Assembly: GCA_041394685.1 (NCBI GenBank)
Contig: JAWKHU010000038.1
Span: 130,087 to 194,086, forward strand
DNA from: Vicinamibacterales bacterium
GTDB lineage: Bacteria > Acidobacteriota > Vicinamibacteria > Vicinamibacterales > UBA2999
DNA: 64,000 nt
Reading direction: 5' to 3'
The notes beneath the pieces are model-generated. The model did not search any database. It was not told the DNA's origin and worked only from the letters and a program-made list of their open reading frames with translations. How positions within the stretch are numbered: the first letter of the stretch is position 1; every line of letters starts with the position of its first letter. Position numbers and translations under genes: made by a program. Below are positions 4,012-56,216 of the stretch, piece after piece.

Positions 4012-5597
4012 TCAGCGGCAGTTGGCCTGATAGCGGCCAACCGCCGCCTGCAGGGGCCCCACCATCGCGGGGCGCTCACGCTGGGCGCGCGCCAGGAGCT
4101 CGCCCAGCCAGCGCACCGCCTCGTCGCACCGGCCGAGACCCGCCAGCGCGGCCGCGACGACGGTGCCGTCGGCGAGGTCGTGCGTGGTGTCGTACACGCT
4201 CCGGCCGAGCGTGAGGGCCCGGGCATAGTCGCGGCGATCGACGAGCGGCCCGGTGGCCAGGACCGATGCGAGCCGCGCGGCGATGCGGCCCTGGACGCGT
4301 CGGCCGCATGACCGCGCTCGAGGGCGGCGAGGGCCTCGGTGTGCCGGCCGAGTGCGGTGAGCGCTTCGACCTCACCAAGCCGCGCGTCCTCGTCGGCGGC
4401 GTCGAGTGCCAGGGCCTGCGCGAAGACGGCGCGGGCCTCGTCGTAGCGGCCCACGCGGCCGAGCTCGCGACCGAGCAGGTGCAGCGCCTCCGCGTCGCCG
4501 GGCGCCAGTTCCGCGAGATGCGTCAGGTGCCGGATGGCAGTGTCGTGCTCCGCGGCCTCCGATCGGAGGGCGGCCGCGTTGAAGAGCGCGGTTCGATGGT
4601 CGGGGTCGGCGGCCAGGACCGCATCGAACTGCTCCAGTGCACCTGTGCGGTCGCCGATGCGGCCGAGCGCGGTGCCGAGATTGACCCGCGCGATGAGATT
4701 GTCGGGTTCGGTCGCAAGCGCCCTGCGGAAGGCGGCCGCGGCCTCGTCGACCCGGCCGGCCGCGAACGCCACGCGACCGCGGACGATCGCGAGGCGAACA
4801 CCGCGCATGGTGTCGTCGAGGGAGTCGCGCAGGGGATCGGCAACCTTGACCCCCACGCTGCCCTGCCGGTCGAGCTCGGCCCGCGCCTCGTCGAGCCGGC
4901 CCAGCCCTCGATACGCCATGCCGAGCACGTAGTGCACGCGCGTGGCCGCGGGCACCTGCTGCAGTACGCGCGAGAACGCGTCAACGGCGCGCGCGAAGTC
5001 GCCGCGCGCCATGGCGACCTGTCCCACGCCGAATCGAGCGGCCGCCAGCTCCGGCTCGAGCGCGAGTGCCGCGTCGTAGGCCGCCTGGGCCTCGTCTCTC
5101 TGGTCCAGCGACAGATGCAGGTCGCCGAGGCGAACGAGCAGCGGCGCGTAGTCGGGCCGAATCGCGCGCGCGGCCGCGAAAGCCGCTTGCGCCTTCGCCG
5201 TGTCGTTCCGTTCCTGATGGAGGCAGCCCTGCAGGGAGGGCCAGCGGAAGTCGGCGGGGGCGAGCGCGCGCGCCGTGGCGTAGCTGGCCTCGGCGGCCTC
5301 CGTGAGCGCGTACGCGTGATAGGCCTGGGCCAGGTCGCCATGCGCATCGGCGCGGGTGGACGCCGCCGCACCATCCCGTTCGAGTGCCGCGACGGACTCC
5401 GCCAGGGCGCGGATGTGCTCCGCGACAGCAGGCTCGAGCGCATCGAGGCCGGCCGGAGGGACGACCACCGGCAACTGCCGGGACACCCGCGGCCCGGCAT
5501 CGGCCAGCGGTGTGACCGCGGCGCCACCCAGCAGCACGATCAGCGCGCCGACGCCGAGAGTGCTGACGGCCGCACGCCGATAGCGGGGTCTGTCCAT
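4012..5597 (-). CDS. TPR-repeat protein with N-terminal membrane anchor (one frame break near 4290 as sequenced)
   Basis: N-terminal TM is GVGALIVLLGGAAV, followed by a long run of TPR-like A/L/Y/G-rich repeats. After ...ALERGHAAD the main ORF turns into RS-rich nonsense. A plausible C-terminus (VYDTTHDLADGTVVAAALAGLGRCDEAVRWLGELL...QANCR) sits in ORF 4012..4197. Confidence 0.7.
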
Positions 5598-5606
5598 GTG
5601 CGCGTC

Positions 5607-7457
5607 CTACCGCACGGCCGTTCCGGCGCCCTGCTGCAGGGTCGTATAGGCGCCTTCGCGCAGCCCCGTCCAACGCTCCGTCTCACCCGACGGCCACCGC
5701 ACCCGCACCTCGCGCACACCCGACGATTCCAGGCCCGCGAGCACGCGCGGGTCGTGCGCGGACAGGTAGCCGCCATCCGTGTGCACGCGACGCCGCAGGG
5801 CGCGCCCGTCCGAGCGCACGACGATGACCTCCGCTCCGAGCATGTCGCGGGCGGGCGTCCGTCCGGCCAGCCGCAGGCCCACCCAGCGGGACTGGCCTGG
5901 GGTGTCGTTGCGCAGCACCCGCGCCGGGCCGTTGCTGTTGAGCAGCACGATGTCGGTGTCGCCGTCGTTGTCGAGGTCGCCGAGCGCCATGCCGCGGCTC
6001 ACCTCCGCCACGCGGAACGCCGGGCCGGCCTCAGCGGACGCGTCACGAAAGCGGCCGCCCGTGTGGATGAAGAGCTGAGTGGGCTGCGCGAGCGGATAGG
6101 GATCGCGCGGGTCGGTGGTGAGGCGCAGCACGGCGCCGTTGGCGGCCACCAGGTCGAGCCACCCGTCGTTGTTCACATCGGCCCACAATGTCCCGAAGCC
6201 GGTGTAGCGCGTGCCGAGCCCAAGCCCGGCCTCCCGCGTCCGATCCTCGAACACCGTCTTGCCGAGGTTCACGTACAGCGTGTTGGTCTCGTCCATCAGG
6301 TGCGTGAGGAAGATGTCGGGCCGGCCGTCGCCATTGAAATCCCCGGAGTCCACGCCCATGCCGGCTTCCGCCTGCCCGTCCCGGTTGAGGGCCGTGCCGC
6401 TCAGCAGTGCCGCGTTCTCGAACGTGCCGTCGTGACGGTTCATCCAGAGCTGGTTCTCGTAGCCGTCGTTGGCCACGTAGAGGTCCAGCCAGCCATCGCC
6501 GTCGAAGTCGTCGGCCACCACGCCGAGGCCGGCGCCGAACGCGCGCGCGATGCCGGCCGACGCCGTGACGTCCTGAAAGGTCCCATCACCCTTGTTGCGA
6601 TAGAGGATGTCGGGCACCGGCGGAAAGGACTTCGGGCCGCAGTAGTCGCGGGCGCTCGTGGCGGCGTAGCAGGCAGGCGGTCGCGCGAGATCCACCTCGA
6701 CATAGTTGGTGACGAACAGGTCGAGCCAGCCGTCGCGGTCGTAGTCCACGAACGACGCGCTCGTGCCCCAGCGCCGATCGCCCGTCCCCGAACGCGCGGT
6801 GGCGTCCTCGAAGCGGCCGCCGCCACGGTTCATCCACAACTGGTTGGCGCCAAGGTTGGTGATGGCAGGTCCACGCGGCCGTCGTTGTCCACGTCGCCGG
6901 CGGCCACTCCCATCCCGTAGCCACGCGCCTCGATCCCGCTCGCCGCGGTCACGTCAGTGAAGGTCAGGCGGGCCGACCCAGGCGCGAGGTCGTTGCGGTA
7001 GAGCCGTCCGGACGGCGGCTGCGCGCCGGTCCACGGCGTCAGCGTCTTCGCCGCATCGTCGGACGGCCGCAAGGTCGTGCCCTGCACGAGGAAGAGATCG
7101 AGATCGCCGTCGTTGTCGAAGTCGAACAGCGCGGCGCCGGAGCCGACTATCTCGGGATAGAGGTAGTCGCCGGTGAGGCCGTTGTAGTGACGGAAACGGA
7201 TGCCGGCCGCAGAGGTGATGTCGGTAAAGGTGGCGGGGGCCGCAGATGGCGCAGATGACACAGAGGCCGCAGATTGCGCGGAACTCGCAGAAGCCGCAGA
7301 TGGCGCAGATGACGCAGAGGCCGCAGATTGCGCGGATGACACAGGGGACGCAGATGGCGCAGATGGCGCGAATGAGGCGAAGGGGTGGAGGGTGCGAGGG
7401 GGCCACGCCCGAAACGGCGAGCACGAGGGCGACGATTGGGAGGGGAGGGCGGTGCAT
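5607..7457 (-). CDS. CRTAC1-family FG-GAP/VCBS repeat protein with ASPIC/UnbV C-terminal domain (frame breaks near 6850 and near 7385-7420)
   Basis: Repeats include FDFDNDGDLDLF, GDVDNDGRVDL, VDYDRDGWLDLFVTNY, DDFDGDGWLDLYVANDG, GDFNGDGRPDIF and GDLDNDGDTDIV. The C-terminus is ...GAEVIVV..GGYLSAHDPRV..VRVRWPSG. The gene is split over ORFs 5607..6839 and 6830..7342. The signal peptide MHRPPLPIVALVLAVSG (ATG at 7457) is in a third frame. Confidence 0.75.
7242..7385. repeat. Tandem 9-mer array, 16 units (GCAGATGGC/GCAGATGAC/GCAGAGGCC family) with a 54-bp higher-order period
   Basis: Read directly: gcagatggc gcagatgac acagaggcc gcagattgc gcggaactc gcagaagcc, repeated, then decaying (gcgaatgag gcgaagggg). 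On the minus strand it translates as a Ser/Ala linker between the signal peptide and the mature CRTAC1 domain. Confidence 0.9.
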
Positions 7458-7497
7458 CGTGAGGCGGGACGCGTGCCGGGTGGTCCGGCGCGTCGCG

Positions 7498-8208
7498 TTA
7501 CGGTGGCGGGGGCCGGCGCGGCGGGGCGGCGCGGCCGTCCGGGGGTTCGTTTGACGGGGGCGGCGCGGGGCTGGGCGCGGTGGATGGCACACCGGGGCGT
7601 GCGCCTTCGGGGCGACCGTTGCTCAGGCTTTCGGGGCGGGGTTCGGACGACGCGGCCGACGGCGTGCGGTCGGCGGGCGTGGCGCCGCCATCACGACCGT
7701 TCGCACGATTCTCCTTGTCTTCCGCAGAATCGGCGGCGGCGTCTGGCAGGTTGGTGACGAGGCTGTCTGGTTCGAACGCAGCATTCTCCGCGGCACCGAC
7801 GATCCGCTCGAGTACGGACGCCGGCGTCGTGCCCGCCGGCACGTCACCCTTGGCCAGCACCAGGATCAGATCGATATCCGATGCGCCGCCGGCGCCCGAG
7901 CGCCGGCGGGCGACGTAGCCGGCCGCGTCGCCGAAGATGGCGGCCAGCGCTTCGGCTTCGGGGACGGCGTGCAGCCGCATCGACAGGGTGCGTGCGCCCA
8001 GCAGGTCGGCATTGATCACGGTGGTGCCGCCGGCGCGGGACCATTCCTGCAGCACGCGCGTCGCCGGGATGTCGTCGGCCACCAGTGTCACGCGGCCGGC
8101 GTCGAACGACACGGCGAGCTGGCGGGCGTCGGCGCCCATCGACCATCCGGCCAGGATCGCCAGGGCAAACCCCACCAGTCGCCACGCCGGCGTGCTGCGC
8201 CGCTTCAT
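7498..8208 (-). CDS. Hypothetical secreted protein with Pro-rich C-terminal tail
   Basis: Likely start is MKRRSTPAWRLVGFALAILAGWSMGADA (signal peptide). A structured N-domain is followed by a low-complexity P/S/A tail. GC3-rich codon usage. No family recognised. Confidence 0.5.
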   Translation of the reverse strand: MKRRSTPAWRLVGFALAILAGWSMGADARQLAVSFDAGRVTLVADDIPATRVLQEWSRAGGTTVINADLLGARTLSMRLHAVPEAEALAAIFGDAAGYVARRRSGAGGASDIDLILVLAKGDVPAGTTPASVLERIVGAAENAAFEPDSLVTNLPDAAADSAEDKENRANGRDGGATPADRTPSAASSEPRPESLSNGRPEGARPGVPSTAPSPAPPPSNEPPDGRAAPPRRPPPP

Positions 8209-8224
8209 CCCGACGATTGTACCG

Positions 8225-9604
8225 CTACCGGTCCGCGGCCGCGGCCGGGCGGCCCGCCTCTTCGTGCAGCGGCATGCCACCCTGACACGTGGCCGCGTGC
8301 GCAGCGCGCTCCGCGACAAACCGCGCCAGCAGGTCGTTGCCGAGCTGGTTCAGATGGCAGCAGTCGTCGGCGTACACCGGCCTCGATTCCGTGTCGAACA
8401 GGTCCACCGCACTGGTGATGTCCACGCCCCTGGCGGCCAGCGCGGGCAGGCGTGCGAGCAGCCGCGGATACCCGGCGCGTGCGGCGTCGGCGTAGGGCGA
8501 CGCCGGATTGATCGCGACGCGGCGCTCCTCGTCACTGAACGGCTTGTGGGAGACGTACTGATTGGGCTGGATGACCTGCGCGGAGGGCACGCCTTCCGCG
8601 CAGAGCAGGTCGCGCACCTCGGCGGCCGCGCGTGCCCACAGCGAGACGGCGGCGTCCAGGTGGTCCGGGTCGTCCGCCGTGGCTCCGCGGCGCCAGGGCT
8701 CGAGGCGCAGGACGCCGTCCTGCGCACCGACATATTCGACCAGGGCGCGATTGGCCGCGGCGGCACTGCGTGCGGCCGCGTCGCGGCGCAGCCGGGCGAG
8801 AGCCAGACAGCGGCGGCTCGCGTCCGCGCCATCTGCGACTCGAAATCGCGATGCGCGCTGCCCGTCGCGCCGGGCGCGCACCACGAGTTCCAGCCGGTCG
8901 ATCAGCACGGCCTGCGCGTCGAGCAGGACTTCAGCGGCAGCAGCACCTGCGCTGGGGACGGACGGATCGATACCGCTCTGCACGTTGCCGGAGGCCAGCA
9001 CCACGTCGTTGAAGCCGTCCACCGTGACGGCGAGGATGCGCTGGCGCGCGCGCGCAGAGATAGGCGAGCACCGCCAGCGTCTGCGGCTGCTTGAACGCCC
9101 CTGCACGCCAGGTTGAGGATCTCGATGGGGCGCCCGCGCGGCGCCAGCTCAGCCGTGCAGCGAGCGCGGGTTCTCCTGGAGCATAGCCCACTGCGCCACC
9201 GACCCGCCGAGCACGGCGACGACAAACGTCTGCGCACCGGGCGCCGTCAGGTAGTCGGCCGTCGCGAAGAAGCCGAGGTTGTTGGCCCGTCGTGATGCCC
9301 ACTCCGGCGTCGCACCGTCGGTCGTCATGGCGTCGAGGCGCGAGCGGCCACCGCCTCCGCCACCGACTGCCCCGGCCGGCGGATGAAGCCGAGCACCGGA
9401 TGGAGCACCAGGCCCGGAGACGTCTCGGCGTCGGTCGCCTCACCGGCAACCGCGGCCAACGCGCCTGCCTGGCGCGCATCAAGACCCCGCCGTCGGGCCG
9501 CGCATACGCCCGAGGACGCCCGCCGCCTCGCACAGCAGCGCGATCGCAACCAGATTGACGGCGACACGACAGCCGCGACGCGAGGCACGCCTCACTGTTC
9601 TCAT
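8225..9604 (-). pseudogene. SGNH/GDSL-like hydrolase or acyltransferase-like membrane-anchored protein, fragmented over at least 4 frames as sequenced
   Basis: The largest piece (8225..9106) ends with a block-V-like DDCCHLNQLGNDLLA motif. Upstream pieces in other frames are NNLGFFATADYLTAPGAQTFVVAVLGGSVAQWAMLQENP, ELAPRGRPIEILNLA and the N-terminal TM VAVNLVAIALLCEAAGVLG. Confidence 0.4.
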
Positions 9605-10282
9605 GGGCAGCACACGCGGTGCGGTATACAGTCTGGAACCGCGTGTCCGACCACCAGAATACGGCCGACCGCCCGTGGCGCGCACGTCGGAGGCATGGGA
9701 CACCATCGGGCGGCTGCAGTTCGACTTCCTCGTGTCCCGAGGGCCTCAGGCCCGTCGCCGGCTGCTCGACGTGGTGCGGGTGCCTGCGGGGAGGCGTGCA
9801 CTTCGTCTCCTACCTCGCCGACGGCCACTACTTCGGCATGGACCGCAGCGAGGCACTGCTGGACGCGGGACGCGAGCACGAGCTGGCCGCCGAACGGCCG
9901 ATCGCCGCGTGACGCTGCTCTGCCGCGACGACTTCGCCTTCGGCGAGTTCGGCACGCTTCGACATGGCGCTGGCCCAGTCCGTCTTCACGCACCTTCGGA
10001 ACTCCATCCTTCGCTGTCTCGGAGATGCGGGCGGTGCTCGACGTGGACGGCCTCTTCTTCGCCACCTGGTTCGAGGACGCGGACGCTCGCACAAGACGAC
10101 GAGCATCACGCACGACCCGGGCGGCGTGACCACGTTCCCGGATCGGGATCCCTACCACTACGAGTTCTCCGTCTTCGAGGACCTCGCCCGCCGCGCCGGG
10201 CTCATCGTCGCGGACCTCGGCGCCTGGAACCACCCGCGCGCGCAACGGCTGATGGTGTTCCGGCGCCCGGAACTCCCGCTGA
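9603..10282 (+). CDS. Class I SAM-dependent methyltransferase (several frame breaks as sequenced; boundaries approximate)
   Basis: Pieces are SEAWDTIGRLQFDFLVSRG, GGVHFVSYLADGHYFGMDRSEALLDAGRE, FDMALAQSVFTHL and HDPGGVTTFPDRDPYHYEFSVFEDLARRAGL..AWNHPRAQRLMVFRRP. Confidence 0.55.
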
Positions 10283-11275
10283 TGCACGGCCCGTCGGCTC
10301 CCGCCCTCTCCGTCGTCGTTGTCGTGTTCGACATGGCGCGCGAGGCGCCGCGGACGCTCTTCACGCTGTCGCCGGCGTATCAGGGCCTGCCCGCCGACAC
10401 CTACGAGGTCATCGTCGTGGACAACGGCTCGTCGCCGCCGCTCGGGCGCGAGACCGCGGAGGCCGTCGCGGCAACGTGCGGTGCACGTGTACGTGGACGA
10501 CGCGGCACCGTCGCCTGCAGCCGCGCTGAACCTGGAAGCGTGCTGAACGCGCGGAGGGACTGATCAGGTTCATGGTGGACGGCGCGCGCATGCTGTCGCC
10601 GGGCGTTCTCGGCTACGCGCATCAGGCGGCCCGTGCCTATCGACGGCCGGTCGTGAGCACGCTGGGCTTTCACCTGGGCCACGAGCCCCAGGTGACCGCC
10701 ATGACAAGGGGCTACGACCAGGCCGTCGAGGACACCTTGCTCGACACCGTGGACTGGCGCGGCAACGGCTACGAGCTCTTCCGGATCTCGACGCCGGCAT
10801 CTCGTCCGGCCACGGCTGGTGGGGACCGCTCGCCGAGAGCAACTGCGTGTTCGTGACCCGCGACACCTTCGAGGCCCTCGGTGGCTTCGACGAGCGGTTC
10901 GACATGCCAGGCGGCGGGCTGGTGAACCTCGACTTCTACCGCCGCGCCTGCGAAGCTCCTGGGACCGAGCTGGTGGTCCTCCTCGGCGAGGGCTGCTTTC
11001 ACCAGTTCCACGGCGGCGCCATGACAGGACAGCGCATGGAAGACGTCGCCGCACGGTTCGCCACCCAGGACGCGCAGTACCGCGAGCTGCGTAGTGAACC
11101 GTACCGGCTGCCGCTGGTCCGCTGCGACTACATCGGTCACGCCCCGCCGGCGGCGCACGCCTCGCTGGCGGACGGCGTGGCCAGGTTCGAGGCGTTCCGG
11201 ACCGCCTCACCCGAAGACGCGCGGGCGTACGCCGCCGGGGCCACTTCCGCCCAACCGGCCGCAGCCGGCCACGGC
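10282..11275 (+). CDS. Family 2 glycosyltransferase (frame breaks near 10540 and 10850; may be fused to the following sulfotransferase)
   Basis: Pieces are LSVVVVVFDMAREAPRTLFTLSPAYQGLPADTYEVIVVDNGSSPPL, a mid piece GVLGYAHQAARAYRRPVVSTLGFHLG, then FVTRDTFEALGGFDERFDMPGGGLVNLDFYRRA (a DxD/ED-type GT2 core). Confidence 0.6.
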
Positions 11276-12004
11276 TCCTCAGCGCCAGGTCATCGTCGTC
11301 GGCATGCATCGCAGCGGCACGAGCATGCTGACCGGAAGCCTGCAGCAGGCGGGGCTGGTGCTCGGCGAGGTCGTCACCGAGGCCCCGCACAACGCCAAGG
11401 GCAACCGCGAGTATCCCGCCATCCTGCACATGCAGGAGGAGCTGCTCGTCGCGAGCGGTGGCTCGTGGGACCGGCCGCCAGCGGAGGTGCGCTGGGGAGT
11501 CGCGGCACCGCGCCGTGCGCGACCTCTTCATCGCGCGCTTCCGGACGAGCCGCTCTGGGGTTCAGGATCCGCGCACGCTGCTGACGCTCGAGGGGTGGCT
11601 CAGGCGCTGCCGTCCGCGGAGTTCGCCGGCATCTTCCGCCATCCGGCCCTGGTGGCGCGCTCCCTGCGCCGCCGCACTGGGCTCGACATGGACACGGGCC
11701 TCGAGCTCTGGCGCGTCTACAACACGCGGCTACTCGAGCTGCACCGCCGCCATGCGTTCCCGCTCATGGAGTTCACGACGACGCCGCGGAAGTTCGGCGG
11801 CAGATGGCGACGATGATCGCGCGGCTGGAGCTGCCGAACCGGCAGGCGCCGTCGTTCTTCGAGGACCGGTTGCGGACACGTCCCGCCGACGAGGCGCCGT
11901 TGCCGGACGCGGTGTCGAGGCTGTACGCGGAGCTGCGGGAGCGAGCGGGTACGCCCCGGCCGGCGCCCGATGAGCAGCCGGCCGGGAGTCGAACGGACGG
12001 TTAG
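11276..12004 (+). CDS. Sulfotransferase-family protein (frame breaks near 11520 and 11810; start uncertain)
   Basis: The 5'-PSB-type motif VIVVGMHRSGTSMLTGSL is followed by GNREYPAILHMQEELL, then FRHPALVARSLRRRTG..LELWRVYNTRLLELHRRHAFPLMEF. It is paralogous to the N-domain of 13859..15312. Confidence 0.55.
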
Positions 12005-13641
12005 CGCTGCGGCAGGCTGCGCTCGAGCGCCTCGAGCCGCATCTTCAGCGCGTCGAACTGCTGCTGCTGCTCGGTGAGCTGCCGCTGCAACTGCTCGATG
12101 TAGATGTGGGCCTTCTCCAGCTCGTTGAGCATGCCGGCGGCCTTGCGCCCGATGTTCCACGGCGCGTCCTCGGGTGTCGGCCCGACGGCCGGCAGGTAGC
12201 CGTTGCCCCACATCTCGGCCGCGTGATCCTCGATCGTGGGCATCGCGTAGTCCGGGTGGAACACACGGTCGCAGCCGTCCACGCCGCCGCCGCCGCCGTT
12301 GCCGTCGCTGCAGTTGCCACCGACGACCAGGTTGCCGCGGAGCGTGAGGTTGCCGCCGGTGTCCAGCGTGGCTTCCGTTGCGCCCGTGCCGCTCTTCGAG
12401 AACACGAGGGCCTCGCCGGCCGCTCGCATGCTCACGTTCCAGAAGCTGCTGTTGTTGCCGGCATCGAGCTGGAAGGCCACGTCCCCGTCGGAGTTCGCCA
12501 GCTTGAGGGCCGCGTTGCCGGTGCCGATGTTGCTCGCCGTGCCACGCACGTCGATCGGCGCTTGCGGGGTCGTCAGACCGAACCCGACGCGCCCCGTGGC
12601 GGAGATGTCCACGGCGCTCGTCGGCGCGCCCGGACGGACGCGGAACGGATAACGGTCACCGGCGGTGGAGTCGCGGACGAAGAAGTTGGCCTCGTTCCCG
12701 CCGATGTCCCATCGCTGCGCCGCAAAGCCGCCGGAGTTGTTCTGCTCCAGGCGCAGGGCGGGCGTGTTGCTGGTGTTGAAGTGGGCATCCAGCGCCGGCG
12801 AACTGGTGCGGAAACCGACGCGACCGGTGCTGTCCACGTACAGCGAACTGGTCGGGGAGTTGGCCTCCACGAGGAAGGGCGTCCGGCCGGCCGTCGAGTC
12901 CTCGACGGCGAAGTAGTTGGCGCCTCCGTTGGTCGTGTCGTTGATCACGATGCGCCAGTCGTTGGCCGGGAAGGTGCCGGTGGACGTGTCGTCGAAATGG
13001 ATGCGGAGGTTGTTCTCCCTCAGGCGGATCGAATCGGAGCCGAAGTTCTCCGGCACCACGCAGTCGACGCCCACGCAGGCAGCGTTGTAGACGTATAGGT
13101 TGTCGTTCGCGGTGAGGCTCGGCGAGTCGGTGCCGGCCAACGACGGCGGCACGCCGTCACCATCCGGGGCGGGAAGCGCCGTCTTCTCGTCGCTGCCCGG
13201 CTTCGGATACCGGCCGTTGAGCACGAACGCGTCGAGCGGCAGGCCGCCTACCGTCTCGGCATCGGCCGCCTTGAGCGCGTACGGCACGCTGGCCCAGAAG
13301 GAACGAGGGCCCTCGGGCGCGCCGTCCACCGAGATGCCCAGCCATCGAGCCTCGCCCTTGGTGAAGAGGTCCGAGGGCAGGCCCTCGGGCTGGGTGGCGC
13401 CGAGCAGGGTCGAGTACTGCCCGTTGGCGTCGAGCGCCAGCGCCTGGGTCTCACTCCAGATGGGGGCGCCGCCTTCCTTCTCGCTGTAGATCGCGAAGGT
13501 GATGGTGACGCCGCCAGCCAGCAGGTTGCCGCCGGCATCGCGGGCCACGCCCGAGGCGGGCACGACACGCGGAGGCGCCTGAGCAGACGTGGACTGCAGC
13601 CCCAGCAGCCCGATTCCGATGGCGATCAACAAGCCCTTCAT
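12001..13641 (-). CDS. Secreted tail-fibre-like repeat protein with C-terminal coiled coil
   Basis: Intact 546-aa ORF with a GGGAGGA RBS and signal peptide MKGLLIAIGIGLLGLQSTSAQA. It has repeated STGRVGFRTSSPA / ATGRVGFGLTTPQAPIDV beta-strand units typical of tail-fibre-domain proteins. The C-terminus is FHPDYAMPTIEDHAAEMWGNGYLPAV...LEKAHIYIEQLQRQL. Confidence 0.75.
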   Translation of the reverse strand: MKGLLIAIGIGLLGLQSTSAQAPPRVVPASGVARDAGGNLLAGGVTITFAIYSEKEGGAPIWSETQALALDANGQYSTLLGATQPEGLPSDLFTKGEARWLGISVDGAPEGPRSFWASVPYALKAADAETVGGLPLDAFVLNGRYPKPGSDEKTALPAPDGDGVPPSLAGTDSPSLTANDNLYVYNAACVGVDCVVPENFGSDSIRLRENNLRIHFDDTSTGTFPANDWRIVINDTTNGGANYFAVEDSTAGRTPFLVEANSPTSSLYVDSTGRVGFRTSSPALDAHFNTSNTPALRLEQNNSGGFAAQRWDIGGNEANFFVRDSTAGDRYPFRVRPGAPTSAVDISATGRVGFGLTTPQAPIDVRGTASNIGTGNAALKLANSDGDVAFQLDAGNNSSFWNVSMRAAGEALVFSKSGTGATEATLDTGGNLTLRGNLVVGGNCSDGNGGGGGVDGCDRVFHPDYAMPTIEDHAAEMWGNGYLPAVGPTPEDAPWNIGRKAAGMLNELEKAHIYIEQLQRQLTEQQQQFDALKMRLEALERSLPQR

Positions 13642-16746: not shown

Positions 16747-16761
16747 GGGGGAGTTTAGTCT

Positions 16762-16844
16762 GGGGCGTGGGGCGGGGGCGTGGGGCGTGGGGCGTGGGAC
16801 CTGGGGCTTGGGGCTTGGGGCTTGGGGCTTGGGGCCTGGGACTT
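16762..16844 (+). repeat. Tandem G-rich 7-mer array (GGGGCGT then GGGGCTT), 12 G-tracts
   Basis: Read directly: GGGGCGT GGGGC GGGGGCGT GGGGCGT GGGGCGT GGGACCT GGGGCTT x4 GGGGCCT GGGACTT. It lies in the 161-bp divergent spacer between the dehydrogenase start (16746, minus) and the propeller-gene start (16908, plus). Confidence 0.9.
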
Positions 16845-19889: not shown

Positions 19890-20020
19890 CACGAAGGGCA
19901 CGAAGGGGAGAACACGAAGGGGGGCACGGAGGACACGAAGAGCACGAAGGGGACGAAGGGCACGGAGGGCACGGAGAGCACAGGGGGCGCGGAGGGCGCG
20001 GAGGGCTCGAGGGGATCGAG
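19890..20020 (+). repeat. Tandem purine-rich 9-mer array (CACGAAGGG family), about 14 units, decaying 3'-ward
   Basis: It starts on the nucleotide after the TGA stop (19887..19889): cacgaaggg cacgaaggg ... cacggagga cacgaagag cacgaaggg gacgaaggg cacggaggg cacggagag cacaggggg cgcggaggg cgcggaggg ctcgagggg atcgagcgt. Confidence 0.9.
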
Positions 20021-34698: not shown

Positions 34699-36624
34699 TC
34701 AGAAGACGTCCACGCGCATGTCGGCCGTCGCCGGACCGATGCCCGCCACGTTCATCGCCCGCACGCGCACGTAGTAGGTGCCCGGAGGCGCGTTGGCGGC
34801 CACCAGCGACTCCTGCGGCGTCATCATCGTGCCCACGTCCGTGAGACCGATCTGCGATCCCACCTCGACGATGTAGTTGTCAACGGGACCGCCGGCCGAT
34901 GGTGCCTGCCACGCAAGCGTGACGGTGCGGCCCGTCAGCAGGTGTGTGAGGCCGTCGGGCGCGCCCGGCGGGGCCACGCTGGTGGACAGGGTGACGGCGA
35001 CGTCGTTGGAGGGCGCACCGGTACCGCAGGCGTTGAGCCCGCGCACGCGCAGGTAATAGGTCCCCGGAGGGCCCGTCGCCACCAGCGCCGGCAGGCCACC
35101 GATGTTGCGGCGGCCGTGCTCGACGCCGCCCGGCGTGGCTCCCACTTCGAGCAGGTAGGCAGTGGCTCCAGGCGCGGCGCCCAGTGCGAGCGACATCTGC
35201 AGGCCGTCCACCGTGGCCGCCAGCGGTCCGGGCGCCTGCGGCTCCGACATGCACCCGGTAGCGCCCAGCGTCACCAGCAGCTCGCTCGATGGCGGGCCGA
35301 GCCCGTATGCGTTTCGTCCCCGCACGCGCACGTAGTAGGTGCCGGCCGGCGCGTCGGCGTCGAAGGTGGTCGCCGCTCCCGCCGTGGCCTGGACCAGCAG
35401 GTTGCTTGCTCCAGCCACCGACCCCGCCTCGATGATGTAGTCGGCCGGAAGGCCGCCGGTGGTCGGCGGCAGCCACGACAGCCGCACGCGGAACGTCGTT
35501 GCGGTTGGCGAGTCGCCCATGCGGGCGATGCGCCCCTGCGCAGGCTGGAGCTGGTCGAACCCGAACGTGCGAATCGCGAAGCCCCAGGCCGCGTCTGCAC
35601 CAGGCGCGGTCACCGCCGCATCGCCTTGCTGACCCGCGACGGCATAGGACAACAGGAGGGGCGCACCGGGCACGCGCGAGAAGGTGGGTGACGGCGTCGG
35701 CGTAGGTATTGGAGTCGCCGACGGCGTCGGCGTCGGTACGGGAGTCGCCGACGGCGTCGGTGTCGGCACCGGGCTGGCCGATGGCGTCGGTGTCGGCACC
35801 GGACTCGCCGATGGCGTCGGCGTCGGCACCGGACTCGCCGATGGCGTCGGCGTCGGCACCGGACTCGCCGATGGCGTGGGGGTCGGCACCGGACTCGCGG
35901 AGGGCGTCGGTGTAGGCACCGGGCTCGCTGACGGCGTCGGCGTCGGCGTGACGTCGAAGTGATTGAACACGAGCGCGGGGCCCGCCTGCCCACCGTTCTC
36001 GCGGGAGGCCAGGAACATGCCGCCGTCGCCGCTGGTGGTCGTCCGGCGGATCCGGAACGTCGTGGCGCCGCCGTTGACCAGGGCGGTGACGTCGAAGCTC
36101 AGCTCTCCCGGGCCGGTGTAGCCGCCCTCGGCGCCCGGGGGCGTCCCGGCCGCCGTGTTGTTGAAGGTCGCGTCTCCCTCCGTCTGCGTCGTCGAACACG
36201 CTTCGGCCGTGATTGTCTCGAACGTGGGCGTGAAGTCGATGACCACCTGCGTCACCAGCGTGACCTCGTCGGCCGGGCCGTAGGTGGACAGCAGGGTCGA
36301 GACGGCGGTGGGGTCGAAGATCACCAGCGCATCGGCGCTGTCGGCGCCCTGCACCTCCACCGTCAGCTGCCCGTCGGTGCCGAAGTTGGTATCGGGCTGG
36401 TCCGACCGCAGCGTGGTGTCGCCGGCCACGTCGATCTGCCGCAGGACGGCGTGCGCGGCCGTCACGCCGAAGAGCGGCCCCAGGGCCGCACCGCCGACGA
36501 TGCGACTGAGGTAGCTGACGCCGCCAGAGGCGGTGAAGCCGGTGCCGCCGACGAGCCGCTGCACGAAGCCGCGACGGGACAGCGGATAGCGAGGCCGGGG
36601 ATCGCCGGGGCCGGATGTCTCCAT
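34699..36624 (-). CDS. Tat-exported DNRLRE-domain protein with Pro/Thr/Ser decapeptide linker and three FN3 domains
   Basis: Intact 641 aa. Twin-arginine motif is [17 protein letters not shown]-like motif is [21 protein letters not shown]. There are nine [10 protein letters not shown] repeats. Three FN3 modules carry [13 protein letters not shown] signatures. Confidence 0.8.
35683..35949 (-). repeat. In-frame 30-bp tandem repeat x9 encoding (TPTPSA[ST]P[VI]P)n linker
   Basis: Read directly. Several units differ only by synonymous changes (gcgagt versus gccagc for Ala-Ser) while the peptide stays identical. Confidence 0.9.
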
Positions 36625-36951: not shown

Positions 36952-37312
36952 ATGGATTTCAGCAAGCTGGACGGGCTCATCCCCGCCGTCGTGCAGGACC
37001 GCACGAGCGGCGAGGTGTTGATGGTGGGTTTCATGAACGACGAGGCCTGGGCGATCACGCAGCGCACCGGGTACGTCACCTTCTTCAGCCGCACGCGCAA
37101 CACGCTCTGGACCAAGGGCGAGACCTCTGGCAACCGCCTGGCGGTAGCGGCAGATCTGGACCGACTGCGACGACGACACGGTGCTGGTGAAGGTGGACCG
37201 GGAAGGCGACGGAAACGTGTGCCACACCGGGCAGCGCTCGTGCTTCTACACGGAAGTGCCGCTGACCGGCGGCGGGCAGCCGGCGGCGGGCGCGGCGGGA
37301 GCAGCCCGATGA
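36952..37312 (+). CDS. hisI: Phosphoribosyl-AMP cyclohydrolase, monofunctional (one frame break near 37150)
   Basis: GGGAG RBS. The N-terminal part is [61 protein letters not shown]. In the next frame it continues [29 protein letters not shown]. The stop TGA overlaps the hisG ATG (ATGA). Confidence 0.8.
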
Positions 37313-38194
37313 AGCTGCGGCTCGGCATTCCCAAGGGCTCGCTCGAGCAGGCCACCGTCCAGCTCTTCCAGCGGGCGGGCTTCCAGGTGCTGGTCTCGTC
37401 GCGCTCCTACTTCCCCTCCATCGACGACCCCGAGATCGAGTGCATGCTGATCCGCGCGCAGGAGATGGCCCGCTACGTGGCCGACGGCATCCTCGACGCG
37501 GGCCTCACCGGCTTCGACTGGATTCGCGAGCACGAGATCGGCCACCCCGAGCAACCACCGCTGGTGCCGTCGCCGACCTCATCTACTCGAAACAGAGCTT
37601 CGGCAAGGTGCGCTGGGTGCTGGCCGCGCCGGAGGCTCCCCGTTCCAGACGGCAAAGGACTTCGAGGGCAAGCGCATCGCGACCGAGCTGGTGCGCGTGA
37701 CACGCGACTACTTCCAGCGCCACGGCGTGAACGTGGACGTCGAGTTCTCGTGGGGCGCCACCGAGGTCAAGCCGCCCGTGCTGGCCGACGCCATCGTCGA
37801 GGCCACCGAAACCGGGTCCACCCTGCGGGCCAACCGGCTCCGCATCCTGGACACGATCCTGGAGTCCAACACCCAGCTGATTGCCAACGACACAGCCATG
37901 GCCGACGACTGGAAGCGGACGAAGATCGAGAACCTCGCACTGCTGCTCAAGGCCGCGATAGAGGCACAGGGCCGCGTGGGGCTGATGCTCAACGTGCCGA
38001 AGGCGAGCCTCGACGAGGTGCTGGGCCTGCTGCCCGCCCTGCAGCGGCCCACGGTGAGCGCGCTCAGCGACCCCGAGTGGGTGGCCGTCAACACCATCCT
38101 GGAAGAGAAGACCGCGCGCGACCTGATCCCCAAGCTGAAGGCCGCCGGCGGACAAGGCATCGTGGAGTATCCGCTGACGAAGATCGTCATGTAG
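37309..38194 (+). CDS. hisG: ATP phosphoribosyltransferase, long form (two single-base frame breaks near 37540 and 37640)
   Basis: The protein is [20 protein letters not shown]...[15 protein letters not shown], then [22 protein letters not shown], then [25 protein letters not shown]...GLMLNVPK...EYPLTKIVM. The length of 886 nt equals 888 minus 2. Confidence 0.8.
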
Positions 38195-38250
38195 GAATTC
38201 AGAAGTCAGAATTCAGAATTCAGAAGTCAGAACGGAGAAGGCGGAGCACA
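38195..38250 (+). repeat. Tandem 7-mer array filling the hisG-hisD spacer (GAATTCA/GAAGTCA family, 8 units)
   Basis: GAATTCA GAAGTCA GAATTCA GAATTCA GAAGTCA GAACGGA GAAGGCG GAGCACA, running from the base after the hisG TAG to the A of the hisD ATG. The decayed 3' units supply the hisD RBS (GGAGAAGG). Confidence 0.9.
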
Positions 38251-39551
38251 TGATCCGGGTCGTTCCTTCCACCAATCGCAGGGCCGTGACGGCGCTGCTG
38301 TCCTCCACGCGGGTGCGCGACCGTGTCACCGACCGCAAGGCGGCCGCGATCGTCGAGCGCGTGCGCGCGGGCGGAGACCAGGCGTTGCGTGCCTGCGTGC
38401 GGGAGTTCGACGGCGTGTCCGGACCGCTGGAGATTCCGCGGGCACGCTGGGCGGAGGAGGCCGCGTCGGTTCCCGACGCCGTGCGTGAGGCCATTCGCAC
38501 GGCCGCCCGCCACATCCACCGGGTGGCCCGCGCGCAGGTGCCGCGCGGGTGGCGCGTGCGCGTCGAGCGCGGCGTCACCGTGGAGCAGCGCGTGGTGCCG
38601 CTGTCGCGCGTGGGCTGCTATGTCCCGGCCGGCCGGTATCCGCTGCCGTCGTCGCTGCTGATGACGGCGCTGCCCGCCAGGGCGGCCGGTGTGCCCGAGG
38701 TGATCGTGGCGTGCCCGCGGCCGGACGCCACCGTGTTCGCCGCGGCCATCGAAGCCGGCGTGGACCGCGTCTTTCGGATGGGCGGCGCCCACGCGATTGC
38801 GGCCCTGGCCTACGGCACGCGGAGCGTGCCGCGGGTGGACAAGATCGTGGGGCCGGGCAATCGCTGGGTCTCGGCGGCCAAGTCGCTCGTCACCGCGGAC
38901 TGCGCCATCGACTTCTATGCGGGCCCGACCGAGATCCTCGTGCTCGCGTCGAAGACCCCGCCGGCGTGGGTGGCAGCCGATCTCATTGCCCAGGCCGAGC
39001 ACGATCCGGACGCCCGGGCCGTGTGCGTCACCACGAGCCAGGCGTACGCCAACCGGATCGCGGCCGAAGTGGCCGCCCAGCTCCCCGCCACCGGGCCCGC
39101 GGCCACCTCGCTGGCGCGCCACGGCGGCATCATCGTCGCGCGCTCCCAGCGGGAGGCCGTGGATCTCGCCAACCAGGCGGCTTCCGAGCACCTGGTCGTG
39201 GAGAGCGACGCCGTCGCGGAGCAGATCGTGAACGCGGGCGCGATATTCGTGGGGAGCTGGACCGCCCAGGTGGCGGGCGACTACGCCATCGGCTCGAACC
39301 ACGTGCTGCCGACGGCCGGCGCGGGACGCTACCGCGGCGGGCTGAACGCCGCGGACTTCGTGAAGCTGATCTCCGTGCAGCGCGCCACGGAGCGGGGCCT
39401 GCGGGCCATTGCCGGCGCCGTGACGACGCTGGCGCGAGCCGAGGGCCTGGAGGGACACGCTCGGTCCATCGACGTGCGCATGGGGACCGGCACGCCGCCA
39501 CGAGCCGCACGCGGGGCGCGCGCGACAGCAGGGACGGAGACGACGCGATGA
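38250..39551 (+). CDS. hisD: Histidinol dehydrogenase
   Basis: Intact 433 aa with motifs [27 protein letters not shown] and EGLEGHARS. Confidence 0.9.
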
Positions 39552-40625
39552 CGAGGATACAGGGAGTGCCCGACCTGGGACCTGGGCTCAGGCTGCACCT
39601 GAACGAGAACACCGGCGGCTGTTCGCCGCGCGTGGTGGAGGCCGTCCGCGGATTCACCGCGGAGCGCCTGGCGCTGTGCCCGGACTTCACCGACGCCGTC
39701 ATGGAAACGGCCGCCTTCCTCGGGGTGGACGCCGACCGCCTGGTGCTCACCAACGGGTTGGACGAGGGCATCCTGCTCGCGTCGATCGCCTACACGGTGC
39801 CGCGCGCGCCGGAAGCACTCGTCGAGCTCGGCGCCCCGCTCGTGGTGCTGTCGGGTGTGCCGGAGGTCGTCGTGGCGCTGCCGACCTTCGAGCCGTACTG
39901 CACGCAGCCAGGGGCATGGGGGCGCGCGTCGTCTCGGTGCCCGCCGCGCCCGACTACGCGTTTCCACTCGAGGGCATGCTGCGGGCCATCACGCCGAACA
40001 CGCGGCTCGTCTACGTGAACTCTCCGAACAACCCCACCGGCCAGGTGGTCCCCGCCGACGCCATTCGCGCGGTGGCGGCCGCGGCCGGCCACGCTCTGGT
40101 GTTCGTGGACGAGGCGTAGCCCACGACTTCGCCGGCGAGAACTTCCTCGCCGAGGCGGCCGCGTTCCCCAACGTGCTGATCGGACGGACGTTCTCGAAGG
40201 CGTTCGGCCTGGCGGGCATGCGCGTCGGGGTGATGGCGGCGTCGCCGGCCGTGCTGGAGCCCATCCGGCGCGTCATGCCGCTCTTCAACCTGAACGTGGT
40301 CGCCGTGGCGGCGCTGCGGGCGGCGTTGGCCGATCCCGACTACCGGGCGTGGTATCTCGAGCAGGCCGCGGCGTCGAAGGCCCTCGTCTACGAGACGTGC
40401 GAGCGCCTCGGTCTTCGCTGCTGGCCGAGCGCGGCCAACTTCGTCCTGATCGATGGCGGCGACCGGGCAAGAGCGCTCGTCGCCGGCCTGATCGCGCGCG
40501 GCGTGTTCGTTCGCGACCGCACCGCCGATCCCTCGTGCCCGAACTGCTTCCGGCTGACGGCCGGCGTGGTCGAGCACACCCGGCGTGCCGTGGAGGCACT
40601 GGAGGCCGTATGCGCCGCGGCGTGA
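39548..40625 (+). CDS. hisC: Histidinol-phosphate aminotransferase (two single-base frame breaks near 39900 and 40115)
   Basis: ATGA overlap with hisD. Pieces are [25 protein letters not shown], and in a third frame [15 protein letters not shown] (the PLP-Lys motif). The length of 1078 nt equals 1080 minus 2. Confidence 0.8.
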
Positions 40626-41197: not shown

Positions 41198-41829
41198 TTG
41201 CACTGGTCGACTACGGCGCCGGCAACCTTACCTCGGTGCGCAAGGCGCTCGGCGCCATCGGTGCGTCGTTCTGGACGCCCGCGGCGCCGTCGGAGATTGC
41301 CGATGCGGCAGCGGTGGTCGTACCCGGGGTCGGGCACTTCAGCGCCACAGCGGCGCTGGACGAACCGTGGCGCGACGCGATTCGACGCGCACTTGCCGGC
41401 GGACGCCCGCTGCTCGGCATCTGCGTCGGCCTGCAGTGGCTGTTCGACGGCTCCACCGAGGCGCCAGACGTCCCCGGTCTTGGCGTGGTCGCGGGCACGT
41501 GCCGCCACCTGGGCGACCGGGACCCGGACGCGCGGACGGATGCCGGCGCCGACGGACTGAAGATTCCGCACGTCGGCTGGAACGACCTCACGTTCCCTCG
41601 CCCCACGCGCCTGTTCGACGGCCTCGCCGATGGCACGCAGGTGTACTTCACGCACTCGTTCGCGGCGCCCGTGGTGGCCGCGACCGCGGCCGTCACCACT
41701 TACGGCGTCGCGTTCAGCGCCGCCGTCGAGGACGGCCTGGTGTCCGGCGTGCAGTTCCACCCCGAGAAGTCCGGCGACGCGGGGCTTCGCATCCTGCGCA
41801 ACTGGGCCGCTGATACGGGCCGCAGATGA
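41194..41829 (+). CDS. hisH: Imidazole glycerol phosphate synthase, glutamine amidotransferase subunit
   Basis: The GTG start overlaps the hisB stop (GTGA). Motifs are [33 protein letters not shown] and VQFHPEKSG. The stop TGA (41827..41829) lies inside the first repeat unit. Confidence 0.85.
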
Positions 41830-42149
41830 CGCAGATAGCGCAGATGGCGCAGGGGCCGCAGATGACGCAGATGGCGCAGGGGCCGCAGATGGCGCAGATG
41901 ACGCAGAGGAGGCAGAGGAGGCAGAGGCGGCAGAGGCGGCAGAGGAACCTCGGGAGGGGACTCGAGGCGGCCAGGACCTCTCTGTCGGCTCCACATGCAT
42001 TGATGACGATGACGCCTACGCCCTCACCCTCTGGTCTTGATCCGTGGCATCCGTGGCATTCGCGCCCTCTGCGCTATCTGCGTCATCTGCGGCCTCCGCG
42101 CCCTCTGCGGCCTCTGTGCCATCTGCGGCCTCTGCGCCATCTGCGGCTC
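41822..42149. repeat. Inverted-arm tandem 9-mer element filling the hisH-hisF spacer (14 units, ~92-nt core, 12 inverted units)
   Basis: The left arm at 41822..41947 is GCAGATGAC GCAGATAGC GCAGATGGC GCAGGGGCC ... GCAGAGGCG GCAGAGGAA. The right arm at 42042..42149 is CCGTGGCAT CCGTGGCAT TCGCGCCCT CTGCGCTAT CTGCGTCAT CTGCGGCCT ... CTGCGCCAT CTGCGGCTC, the reverse-complement family. It is the same family as 7242..7385. Confidence 0.9.
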
Positions 42150-43646: not shown

Positions 43647-43681
43647 TTCTTAATTCTGAATTCTGAATTCTGAATTCAGAA
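43647..43681. repeat. Tandem 7-mer array, inverse orientation (TTCTGAA family, 5 units) ending in a 14-bp perfect palindrome
   Basis: TTCTTAA TTCTGAA TTCTGAA TTCTGAA TTCAGAA, starting 2 nt after the hisA TGA. The palindrome TTCTGAATTCAGAA is at 43668..43681. It lies between convergent genes. Confidence 0.9.
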
Positions 43682-55610: not shown

Positions 55611-56115
55611 TCAGCAGAGCGATACGCGCCACGTGGGCGCGATGTCCATCAGGGTGCGGTCCGACCTCGAGATCGAGATGCGCCGCACGTTTGCCTTCCC
55701 CCGCCGCCTCGTCTTCGAGGCGCACAGCAAGCCGGAGTACATCAGTCGCTGGTGGGGACCGCGCGGCAGCGAACTCATCAGCTGCGACATGGACTTTCGC
55801 CCGGGCGGCGCGTGGCGCTTCGTGGTCGGGAAGCCCGGCGGGCAGCAGTACGCGTTCCGCGGCGAGTACAAGGAAGTCGTCCCGCCCGAGCGCCTCGTCT
55901 ACACCTTCGAGTTCGAGGGCATGCCCGGATCGATCACCGTGGACGCGATCACCTTCACCGAGCACGAGGGGCACACCACGCTCACCTGCGTCAGCCGGAT
56001 GGACTCGATCGAAGCCCGCGACGCCATGCTGGCCTCCGGCATGGAGAAAGGCGCGGCCGAAACCTACGACCGGCTGGAGGAAATGCTCGGGGGGATCTCG
56101 GGGAATTCAGAATGA
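55594..56115 (+). CDS. SRPBCC / Aha1-domain protein
   Basis: It overlaps the arsR-like gene by 17 nt. Sequence pieces are FAFPRRLVFEAHSKPEYISRWWGP, GGAWRFV and YKEVVPPERLVYTFEFEG. Confidence 0.8.
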   Translation: MNASASQQSDTRHVGAMSIRVRSDLEIEMRRTFAFPRRLVFEAHSKPEYISRWWGPRGSELISCDMDFRPGGAWRFVVGKPGGQQYAFRGEYKEVVPPERLVYTFEFEGMPGSITVDAITFTEHEGHTTLTCVSRMDSIEARDAMLASGMEKGAAETYDRLEEMLGGISGNSE

Positions 56116-56216
56116 AGAAGTCAGAATTCAGAAGGGCCGTTGGCCGACCTCGGCTTTGTGCCTTTTGCCTTCTGCCTTCTTGATTTCGGCATTCTGCATT
56201 CTGAATTCTGAATTCC
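56103..56216. repeat. Inverted-arm tandem 7-mer element (GAATTCA/GAAGTCA family)
   Basis: The left arm is GAATTCA GAATGAA GAAGTCA GAATTCA GAAGG (56103..56135) and contains the SRPBCC stop codon. After a ~25-nt core comes the right arm CCTTTTG CCTTCTG CCTTCTT GATTTCG GCATTCT GCATTCT GAATTCT GAATTCC (56161..56216). The outer ends GGGAATTC...GAATTCCC are complementary. Confidence 0.9.

Follow-up and report, generated by a model that had tools for sequence, protein, structure and literature searches.

Within a 64,000-nucleotide stretch (the window, to whose numbering all positions refer; 70.8% G+C) of contig JAWKHU010000038.1, from a metagenome-assembled genome (MAG) of a soil bacterium of the Vicinamibacterales (assembly GCA_041394685.1), we found that a CRTAC1-family gene carries, between the segment coding for its signal peptide and its mature domain, a tandem array of 9-bp units (the CRTAC1 array) that belongs to the same repeat family as an element lying between hisH and hisF. 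We consider it moderately probable that this array is read as a Ser/Ala spacer in a secreted CRTAC1 protein and that the breaks in the reading frame of the gene, as deposited, are 1-nt assembly errors. It would then be a clear case in which a secreted protein has taken up genome-specific, non-coding repeat DNA to serve as a disordered spacer, and the family that supplied it is present 34 kb away.

A 9-bp repeat array related to the hisH-hisF element

Tandem Repeats Finder resolved a period of 9 at 7241-7369 (14.3 copies, 0% indels) together with higher-order periods of 27 (7238-7365, 80% matches) and 54 (7239-7365, 2.4 copies, 89% matches), with scores of 111-198. With the register of the unit set to CGCAGA+NNN and a unit counted when at least 4 of its 6 core bases matched, the core array comprises 15 ungapped units (Table 1), nine of which are perfect in the six-base core. 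Beyond it, the degenerate units CGCGAATGA, GGCGAAGGG, GTGGAGGGT and GCGAGGGGG decay with distance from the core array, to about position 7405. The array thus is a long simple sequence repeat (LSSR), or variable-number tandem repeat (VNTR), in the sense of a head-to-tail repetition of a 5-11 nt unit that is longer than expected by chance. No inverted partner arm was found within 6900-7800 (900 bp), so that the array stands as a solitary arm, and its RNA shows no excess of structure over shuffled sequence (fold z = +1.3).

In both of these respects the element between hisH and hisF differs, as it consists of a purine arm and an inverted pyrimidine arm, which fold together into a long hairpin (-220 kcal/mol, z = -8.8). 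Each of its two arrays shows a sharp outer end beside a gene and a degenerate inner end. A search of the window with the two-unit pattern CGCAGATGNCGCAGA, allowing up to 2 mismatches, returned 32 matches against 1.6 expected from shuffles, and all but 3 of them fell within 7241-7372 (+), 41821-41916 (+) and 42068-42145 (-). The spacer triplets TGG, TGA and GGC are common to the CRTAC1 array and both hisH-hisF arms, and the three-unit higher-order period of 27 at 7238-7365 is found also at 41821-41946. The CRTAC1 array is a member of the same 9-mer family as the hisH-hisF element. Recent copying between the arrays was rejected, since the in-register identity of the CRTAC1 array to the hisH-hisF arms (78-83%) is the same as, and no higher than, that between those two arms. 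Rfam gave no match in the window, nor on the arrays in 16 array-bearing loci, and a search of the literature for the repeat strings turned up no relevant paper.

These results agree with an initial annotation of the window, made from its sequence, which had described sixteen tandem 9-mers at 7242..7385 with a 54-bp period and had placed them in one family with the hisH-hisF element. The former is the same array in a shifted register; the latter is borne out by the common core, the spacer triplets and the three-unit period. Likewise, the arm upstream of hisF, which had been said to translate to a near-identical SA-rich peptide, does have an SA-rich reading of 40 residues in frame with hisF.

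The host gene and the reading frame of the array

Pfam identified the host gene by PF13517 (FG-GAP_3; 7.9e-42) and PF07593 (UnbV_ASPIC; 1.7e-12), and its mature region, when repaired to 542 aa, is 73-74% identical to 590-aa CRTAC1 family proteins with 100% of the query covered. In tblastn, residues 47-180 of an orthologue aligned in frame -1 and residues 172-590 in frame -3, and the conserved domain was found to start at 7228, the F of ATFTD. On the minus strand, one frame (frame B) reads FAPSAPSASPVSSAQSAASASSAPSAASASSAQSAASVSSAPSAAP and then directly ATFTDITSAAGIRF, as the initial annotation had stated in describing the array as followed by the conserved start of the mature domain. A second frame (frame A) encodes MHRPPLPIVALVLAVSG from ATG 7457, which the same annotation had recognized as a signal peptide in a different frame, and of the three minus-strand frames it is the only one that encodes a hydrophobic h-region. 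The annotation had further called the 9-bp unit frame-neutral and all three frames free of stops; indeed, no stop occurs in any minus-strand frame across 7225-7460, and the sense orientation of the array is the one that is stop-free in every frame. Between the array and the conserved domain there is no possible start codon.

How could a repeat of this kind have come to lie inside a gene? We propose that the array is a long simple sequence repeat whose 9-bp family occurs commonly in this lineage of the Vicinamibacterales and elsewhere lies at gene boundaries, often as inverted pairs folding into hairpins. Here a solitary copy, in the stop-free orientation, would occupy the unstructured stretch that separates the signal peptide from the first beta-propeller repeat. 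Since each unit is 9 bp long, slipped-strand events that add or remove units would leave the frame unchanged, and the 27- and 54-bp higher-order periods would point to multi-unit duplications. Read in the frame that is continuous with the mature domain, the array would provide about 48 residues of (Ser-Ala-X)n, a linker with neither K nor R, and thereby lengthen the segment before the domain from a family median of 40 to 76 residues. It may be young, or repeat dynamics may maintain it in place of selection on codons. Both the frame shift that separates signal peptide and array and the one at 6864 would be 1-nt assembly errors. Going by the sequence, translation as a roughly 48-aa (S-A-X)n spacer is the most likely fate of the array; its origin by slippage and its function as a spacer are presumed. 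If so, the public annotation divides a single secreted protein of 617 residues between two fragments, and the repeat disappears into what is taken for an intergenic gap.

Comparison with relatives fits such a spacer. Among 109 relatives the segment before the domain ranges from 5 to 83 residues, so that the length of 76 obtained with the Ser/Ala reading lies inside the range of the family and appears tolerable. The linkers of the relatives are hydrophilic and rich in S/A/G/P/T, and a signal peptide is present in every relative read from its true N-terminus. Orthologues have a signal peptide and a non-repetitive linker of about 20 aa, e.g. ADPGMDDGQRPSASTGSGSDG, and no tandem repeat was found at the linker of the orthologous loci. 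The genome of one orthologue, MAG JBFWQE01, carries the 9-mer family at two other loci, namely as an inverted pair beginning right after a stop codon (L116) and as a pyrimidine arm that precedes a DapA-like start by about 10 nt (L111). As this genome holds the family elsewhere and lacks the linker array, the family predates the split of the two lineages and the linker array is lineage-specific. In the linker of an orthologous locus (L001, 6095-6115), CCT TCT GCA TCG (P-S-A-S) stands at the spot equivalent to the array and resembles one unit, as either a seed or a coincidence. Metagenome scans with the back-translated gene peptides TDITSAAGIRFRHYNG and IFLTHLMDETNTLYVNLG gave 0 matches and hence no independent assembly or closer relative. 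A protein search with the translation of the repeat returned no match at E <= 1, probably owing to the composition filter.

Several observations weigh against translation of the array as a Ser/Ala spacer. As sequenced, the signal-peptide segment is one base out of frame with the array and the domain. The error that would have to be assumed in order to join them is a 1-base insertion or a 2-base deletion, whereas the other breaks that we examined look like 1-base deletions, and a rough estimate puts at only 10-30% the probability that the 170 nt concerned contain an error. In the public (NCBI) annotation, most of the array falls outside the coding sequence. C5 runs lie at both of its ends (7398-7402 and 7235-7239), and one correction gives either the Ser/Ala frame or a Cys-rich frame. 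Pyrimidine arms in this genome otherwise sit just upstream of start codons. Finally, in the signal-peptide frame the G+C content at third codon positions (GC3) of the array is 0.89, as in a gene, though this value stems from the repeat unit itself.

Could the frame break then be real? In that case the array or an adjacent indel would have severed the signal peptide, the array would be an untranslated 5' leader like other pyrimidine arms, and the gene would be a recent pseudogene or would have been re-initiated at GTG 7261 without a signal peptide. This is possible, and we regard it as unlikely. The break is present in the sequence as given, the public annotation starts at GTG 7261, and pyrimidine arms of the family lie 10-20 nt upstream of the starts at hisF, at 56215 and at L111; in addition, from the average indel rate of the assembly, an error at just this place has only a modest prior probability. 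However, gain or loss of 9-bp units never shifts the frame, and therefore a real break would require an extra, independent mutation. A propeller protein without the signal peptide that its relatives carry would be non-functional, and the domain shows no decay past one error-like break.

The frame break is discounted mainly because the assembly is full of indels. In the same assembly hisC is broken twice and split over three frames inside an otherwise complete his operon (39400-40625), a GT2/sulfotransferase stretch (10050-12010) shows at least 4 frame changes, and the CRTAC1 gene (around 6864) and the TPR gene downstream of it (4293-4305) contain one break each. Two of the breaks are at CCAGG sites, and the repair of a third can generate CCTGG, a pattern that would be compatible with the miscalling of methylated sites in long reads; C homopolymers, too, are hot spots of error. 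Very roughly, we estimate 0.3 to 2 single-nucleotide indels per kb. By this evidence it is probable, and likelier than a real break, that the offset between signal peptide and array is an assembly error, and the C-rich stretch at 7376..7406 is the likely site of the 1-nt error that separates frames A and B. Any frame-based claim in this window needs care for the same reason; hisG (36959-38191), as a separate observation, probably carries frame errors too. Of the earlier suggestion that the family lives both intergenically and as a tolerated linker, the intergenic family and the position of the array stand, while the Ser/Ala translation is held here as a probable reading of a region whose coding sequence is annotated from GTG 7261.

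We consider it improbable that the array grew in place by slippage of the codons of an ancestral P-S-A-S linker, with its likeness to the intergenic family due to convergence. The linkers RPSAS and RPVAS of orthologues at the equivalent position, and the many unrelated genomes with 9-mers of the same core in coding linkers, would be compatible with such a local expansion; but the six-base core, the spacer triplets and the three-unit structure match those of the intergenic arms, and the family exists in a relative whose linker is unexpanded. The codon usage of the array argues in the same direction. In the Ser/Ala frame, TCT accounts for 11 and TCA for 4 of 19 Ser codons, compared with 2.1% and 0.7% of the Ser codons in reference genes (4970 codons, clean genes; P ~2e-14), and GC3 is 0.50 as opposed to 0.894 in the reference genes. 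Codons grown locally at a GC3 of 0.89 should not be mainly TCT, TCA, CCA and CAA. Because the codons are rare and GC3 is so different, we dismiss convergent low complexity shaped by the codon usage of the genome, and the array is repeat DNA, presumably read through. The initial annotation had held that an unrelated, non-repetitive linker in orthologues would speak for convergence. The orthologue linkers are indeed of that form, but the family unit, the higher-order period and the rare codons remain, and a shared repeat family is still the better account.

Translation of the array in the signal-peptide frame, as the hydrophobic Cys-rich repeat AICAICVPCVIRAICGLCVICAICG (AICAICVPCV...) with the error placed in the C5 run at 7235-7239, is very improbable: a one-base correction there restores the open reading frame (ORF) equally well and GC3 is 0.89, as in real genes, but 15 Cys in a hydrophobic stretch of 50 residues are unlike any linker of the relatives read, and coding examples elsewhere read S-A-X or R-P-L. 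This frame was rejected on protein grounds only. GC3 was dropped as a guide to the translated frame, as the high value in the Cys-rich frame is inherent in the unit and is found in the intergenic arms as well. That one indel in the C-rich run would join signal peptide and array, as had been stated earlier, holds insofar as a single base suffices; the second C5 run, which allows the Cys-rich frame, had been missed.

The gene lies in a conserved cluster, in which the order of an upstream gene (about 250 aa), the CRTAC1 gene and the TPR gene is kept in the orthologous loci. ATG 7457 follows the stop of the upstream gene at a distance of 40 nt, compared with a gap of 18 nt in the orthologous loci. 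No Pfam family was found for the upstream gene. The annotated piece P0121 begins MSSAPSAAPATFTD. Exact-sequence look-ups of HisF, a 410-aa ORF and P0001 matched no record.

Table 1. Features of the CRTAC1 locus and of the hisH-hisF element in the window
Feature	Position	Strand	Remarks
Core array, 15 ungapped 9-bp units	7241..7375	-	CGCAGAKGN on the + strand, NCMTCTGCG in the sense direction; frame B reads (S-A-X)n
C-rich degenerate units	7376..7406	-	C5 run at 7398-7402 and C4 run at 7382-7385
Second C5 run	7235..7239	-	Junction of array and mature domain
Signal-peptide-coding segment MHRPPLPIVALVLAVSG, frame A	7407..7457	-	ATG 7457; aligns with signal peptides of orthologues
Mature CRTAC1-family region	5607..7234	-	FG-GAP/VCBS repeats and UnbV_ASPIC; 1-nt frame break near 6864
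P0121, annotated coding sequence, VCBS repeat-containing protein, 143 aa	6830..7261	-	From GTG 7261 inside the array to the stop made by the frame break
P0001, other annotated piece, 408 aa	5607-6833	-	Public annotation
Upstream gene of the conserved operon	7498..8319	-	tblastn matches from 250/256-aa genes upstream of orthologues
Downstream TPR gene of the conserved cluster	4012..5597	-	Frame break 4293-4305, beside a CCAGG site
Purine arm (CGCAGAKGN)n of the hisH-hisF element	41821..41946	+	hisH stop TGA 41827-41829 inside the first unit
Pyrimidine arm (NCMTCTGCG)n of the hisH-hisF element	42038..42145	+	Ends 18 nt before hisF ATG 42164

The 9-mer family in other genomes and other repeats in the window

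Is the 9-mer family found beyond this lineage? To describe its distribution, one genome per species was scanned and a locus was defined by three or more units of the CGCAGAKGN core. At least 119 loci were found, in cyanobacteria, Chloroflexi, Planctomycetes, Verrucomicrobia, Acidobacteria, Gemmatimonadetes, Proteobacteria, Bacteroidetes and Actinobacteria, in a scan that covered this core alone. In the same single-core scan, an inverted partner lay 3' of the array in 40 of 125 arrays and 5' in 1 of 125. Most of the array loci in high-GC genomes are non-coding on both sides. In well-assembled genomes, arrays read in frame were found as an S-A-X linker in a GH3 enzyme of Nocardioides and in a RamC-like enzyme of Nonomuraea, and as an R-P-L linker in a subdivision-6 acidobacterial MFS/spermidine-synthase protein. 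Together with a same-core array that is read in frame as AEG in a RecD2-like helicase, these make up the in-gene arrays at L074 1901-1963, L027 5644-5679, L083 4079-4114 and L025 272-361.

A rule of orientation, with the purine arm after stops and the pyrimidine arm before starts, fits the window and the high-GC loci; it fails for solitary arrays in low-GC cyanobacteria and was therefore not retained as a general rule. We find it doubtful that CGCAGAKGN arrays form a coherent functional class of intercistronic element in many phyla, with the purine arm always preceding the pyrimidine arm and with arms that often sit on the stop codon of the gene before them and near the start of the gene that follows, in which the CRTAC1 array would be a captured pyrimidine arm. 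No description of such an element class was found. The wider value of the present observations lies in the repeat family, i.e. in its placement at gene boundaries and in the polarity of its arms, which is a question apart from the CRTAC1 array.

Several copies of the family stand in a larger context. Those of Microcoleus have common flanks, TTTTTTAAC ... AGAGAAGAGAGA. An array with a period of 26 bp in the related MAG of the Vicinamibacterales (CGCAGATGGCGCGGACAGGACCGGGC, 10 copies; L111 6294-6553) has the 9-mer core embedded within a longer unit. In an Acidobacteriota MAG (L100 219-329), two matches to the Acido-Lenti-1 RNA (RF01687) lie on opposite strands beside an inverted pair of CGCAGAGGC.

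The window itself contains further repeats near gene ends. A 7-mer family (GAATTCA/GAAGTCA) at 56106-56215 has an architecture like that of the 9-mers: a purine arm, with the TGA of the upstream gene (56113-56115) inside it, is followed by a spacer, an inverted pyrimidine arm and, about 20 nt later, an ATG. The same 7-mers also fill two junctions within the his operon, one copy beginning directly behind the hisG stop (38195-38239) and the other directly behind a hisA-like stop (43647-43681), where the repeat forms a perfect palindrome, of short length, around GAATTC; such a 7-mer also adjoins a CGCAGATGR array in a Synechococcales MAG (L016). A 997-aa fn3/beta-propeller gene is bordered by a related 9-mer array, CACGAAGGG drifting to CGCGGAGGG (19890-20014), which starts at the base after its TGA, and by a G-tract heptamer array, (TGGGGCG)n (16761-16840), about 65 nt upstream of its ATG. 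Finally, a 30-bp repeat at 35690-35947 (8.6 copies, 89% matches) lies in a minus-strand coding region and presumably encodes a 10-residue protein repeat.

Comparison with known repeat systems

Some bacterial genomes are rich in long simple sequence repeats of 5-11 nt, and those found inside genes are the ones with a unit divisible by three, according to the account of Mrazek 2007 given in PMC4679880. The CRTAC1 array shares with LSSR/VNTR loci the head-to-tail arrangement of short units far beyond chance, slippage as the presumed mechanism, a genome rich in 7-9 nt arrays and the tolerance of three-divisible units in coding regions. It differs in that one unit family occurs here both as the arms of an intergenic inverted hairpin and as a solitary array in frame with a gene.

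Heptamer families near stop and start codons have been described (PMC4679880, PMC4692102), among them the cyanobacterial STRR sequences, TAACTGA (PMC4679880) and the GGGNATC of Xanthomonas and Nostoc (PMC4692102). As here, short units characteristic of a lineage lie near stops and starts and are common to distant phyla. In contrast to them, the present unit is 9 nt long, frame-neutral and without G-quadruplex potential, and its arrays are often inverted arms; heptamer families do occur elsewhere in the window. The hisH-hisF element, an intercistronic palindrome inside an operon, resembles in this respect the REP/BIME/REPIN sequences (PMC3733652, PMC3116915). These are, however, palindromes of 20-40 bp with GTAG/CGTC heads and not tandem non-palindromic 9-mers, and the CRTAC1 array is a solitary arm with no hairpin. 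No RAYT transposase turned up, in analyses that included no search aimed at one.

A parallel to the proposed spacer is provided by the tandem repeats of Borg elements, which create disordered protein regions (bioRxiv 10.1101/2022.05.18.492195), and by the Ser/Ala/Pro/Thr-rich linkers of secreted enzymes, in which, as proposed here, recently formed three-divisible repeats serve as a low-complexity and presumably disordered linker between functional parts. Unlike the Borg repeats, the CRTAC1 array lies in an ordinary acidobacterial chromosomal gene, its unit would be borrowed from a genome-wide non-coding family, and its translation is presumed. In-frame tandem repeats with a three-divisible unit that act as linkers are an already known kind, and the acquisition of one more is an ordinary event.

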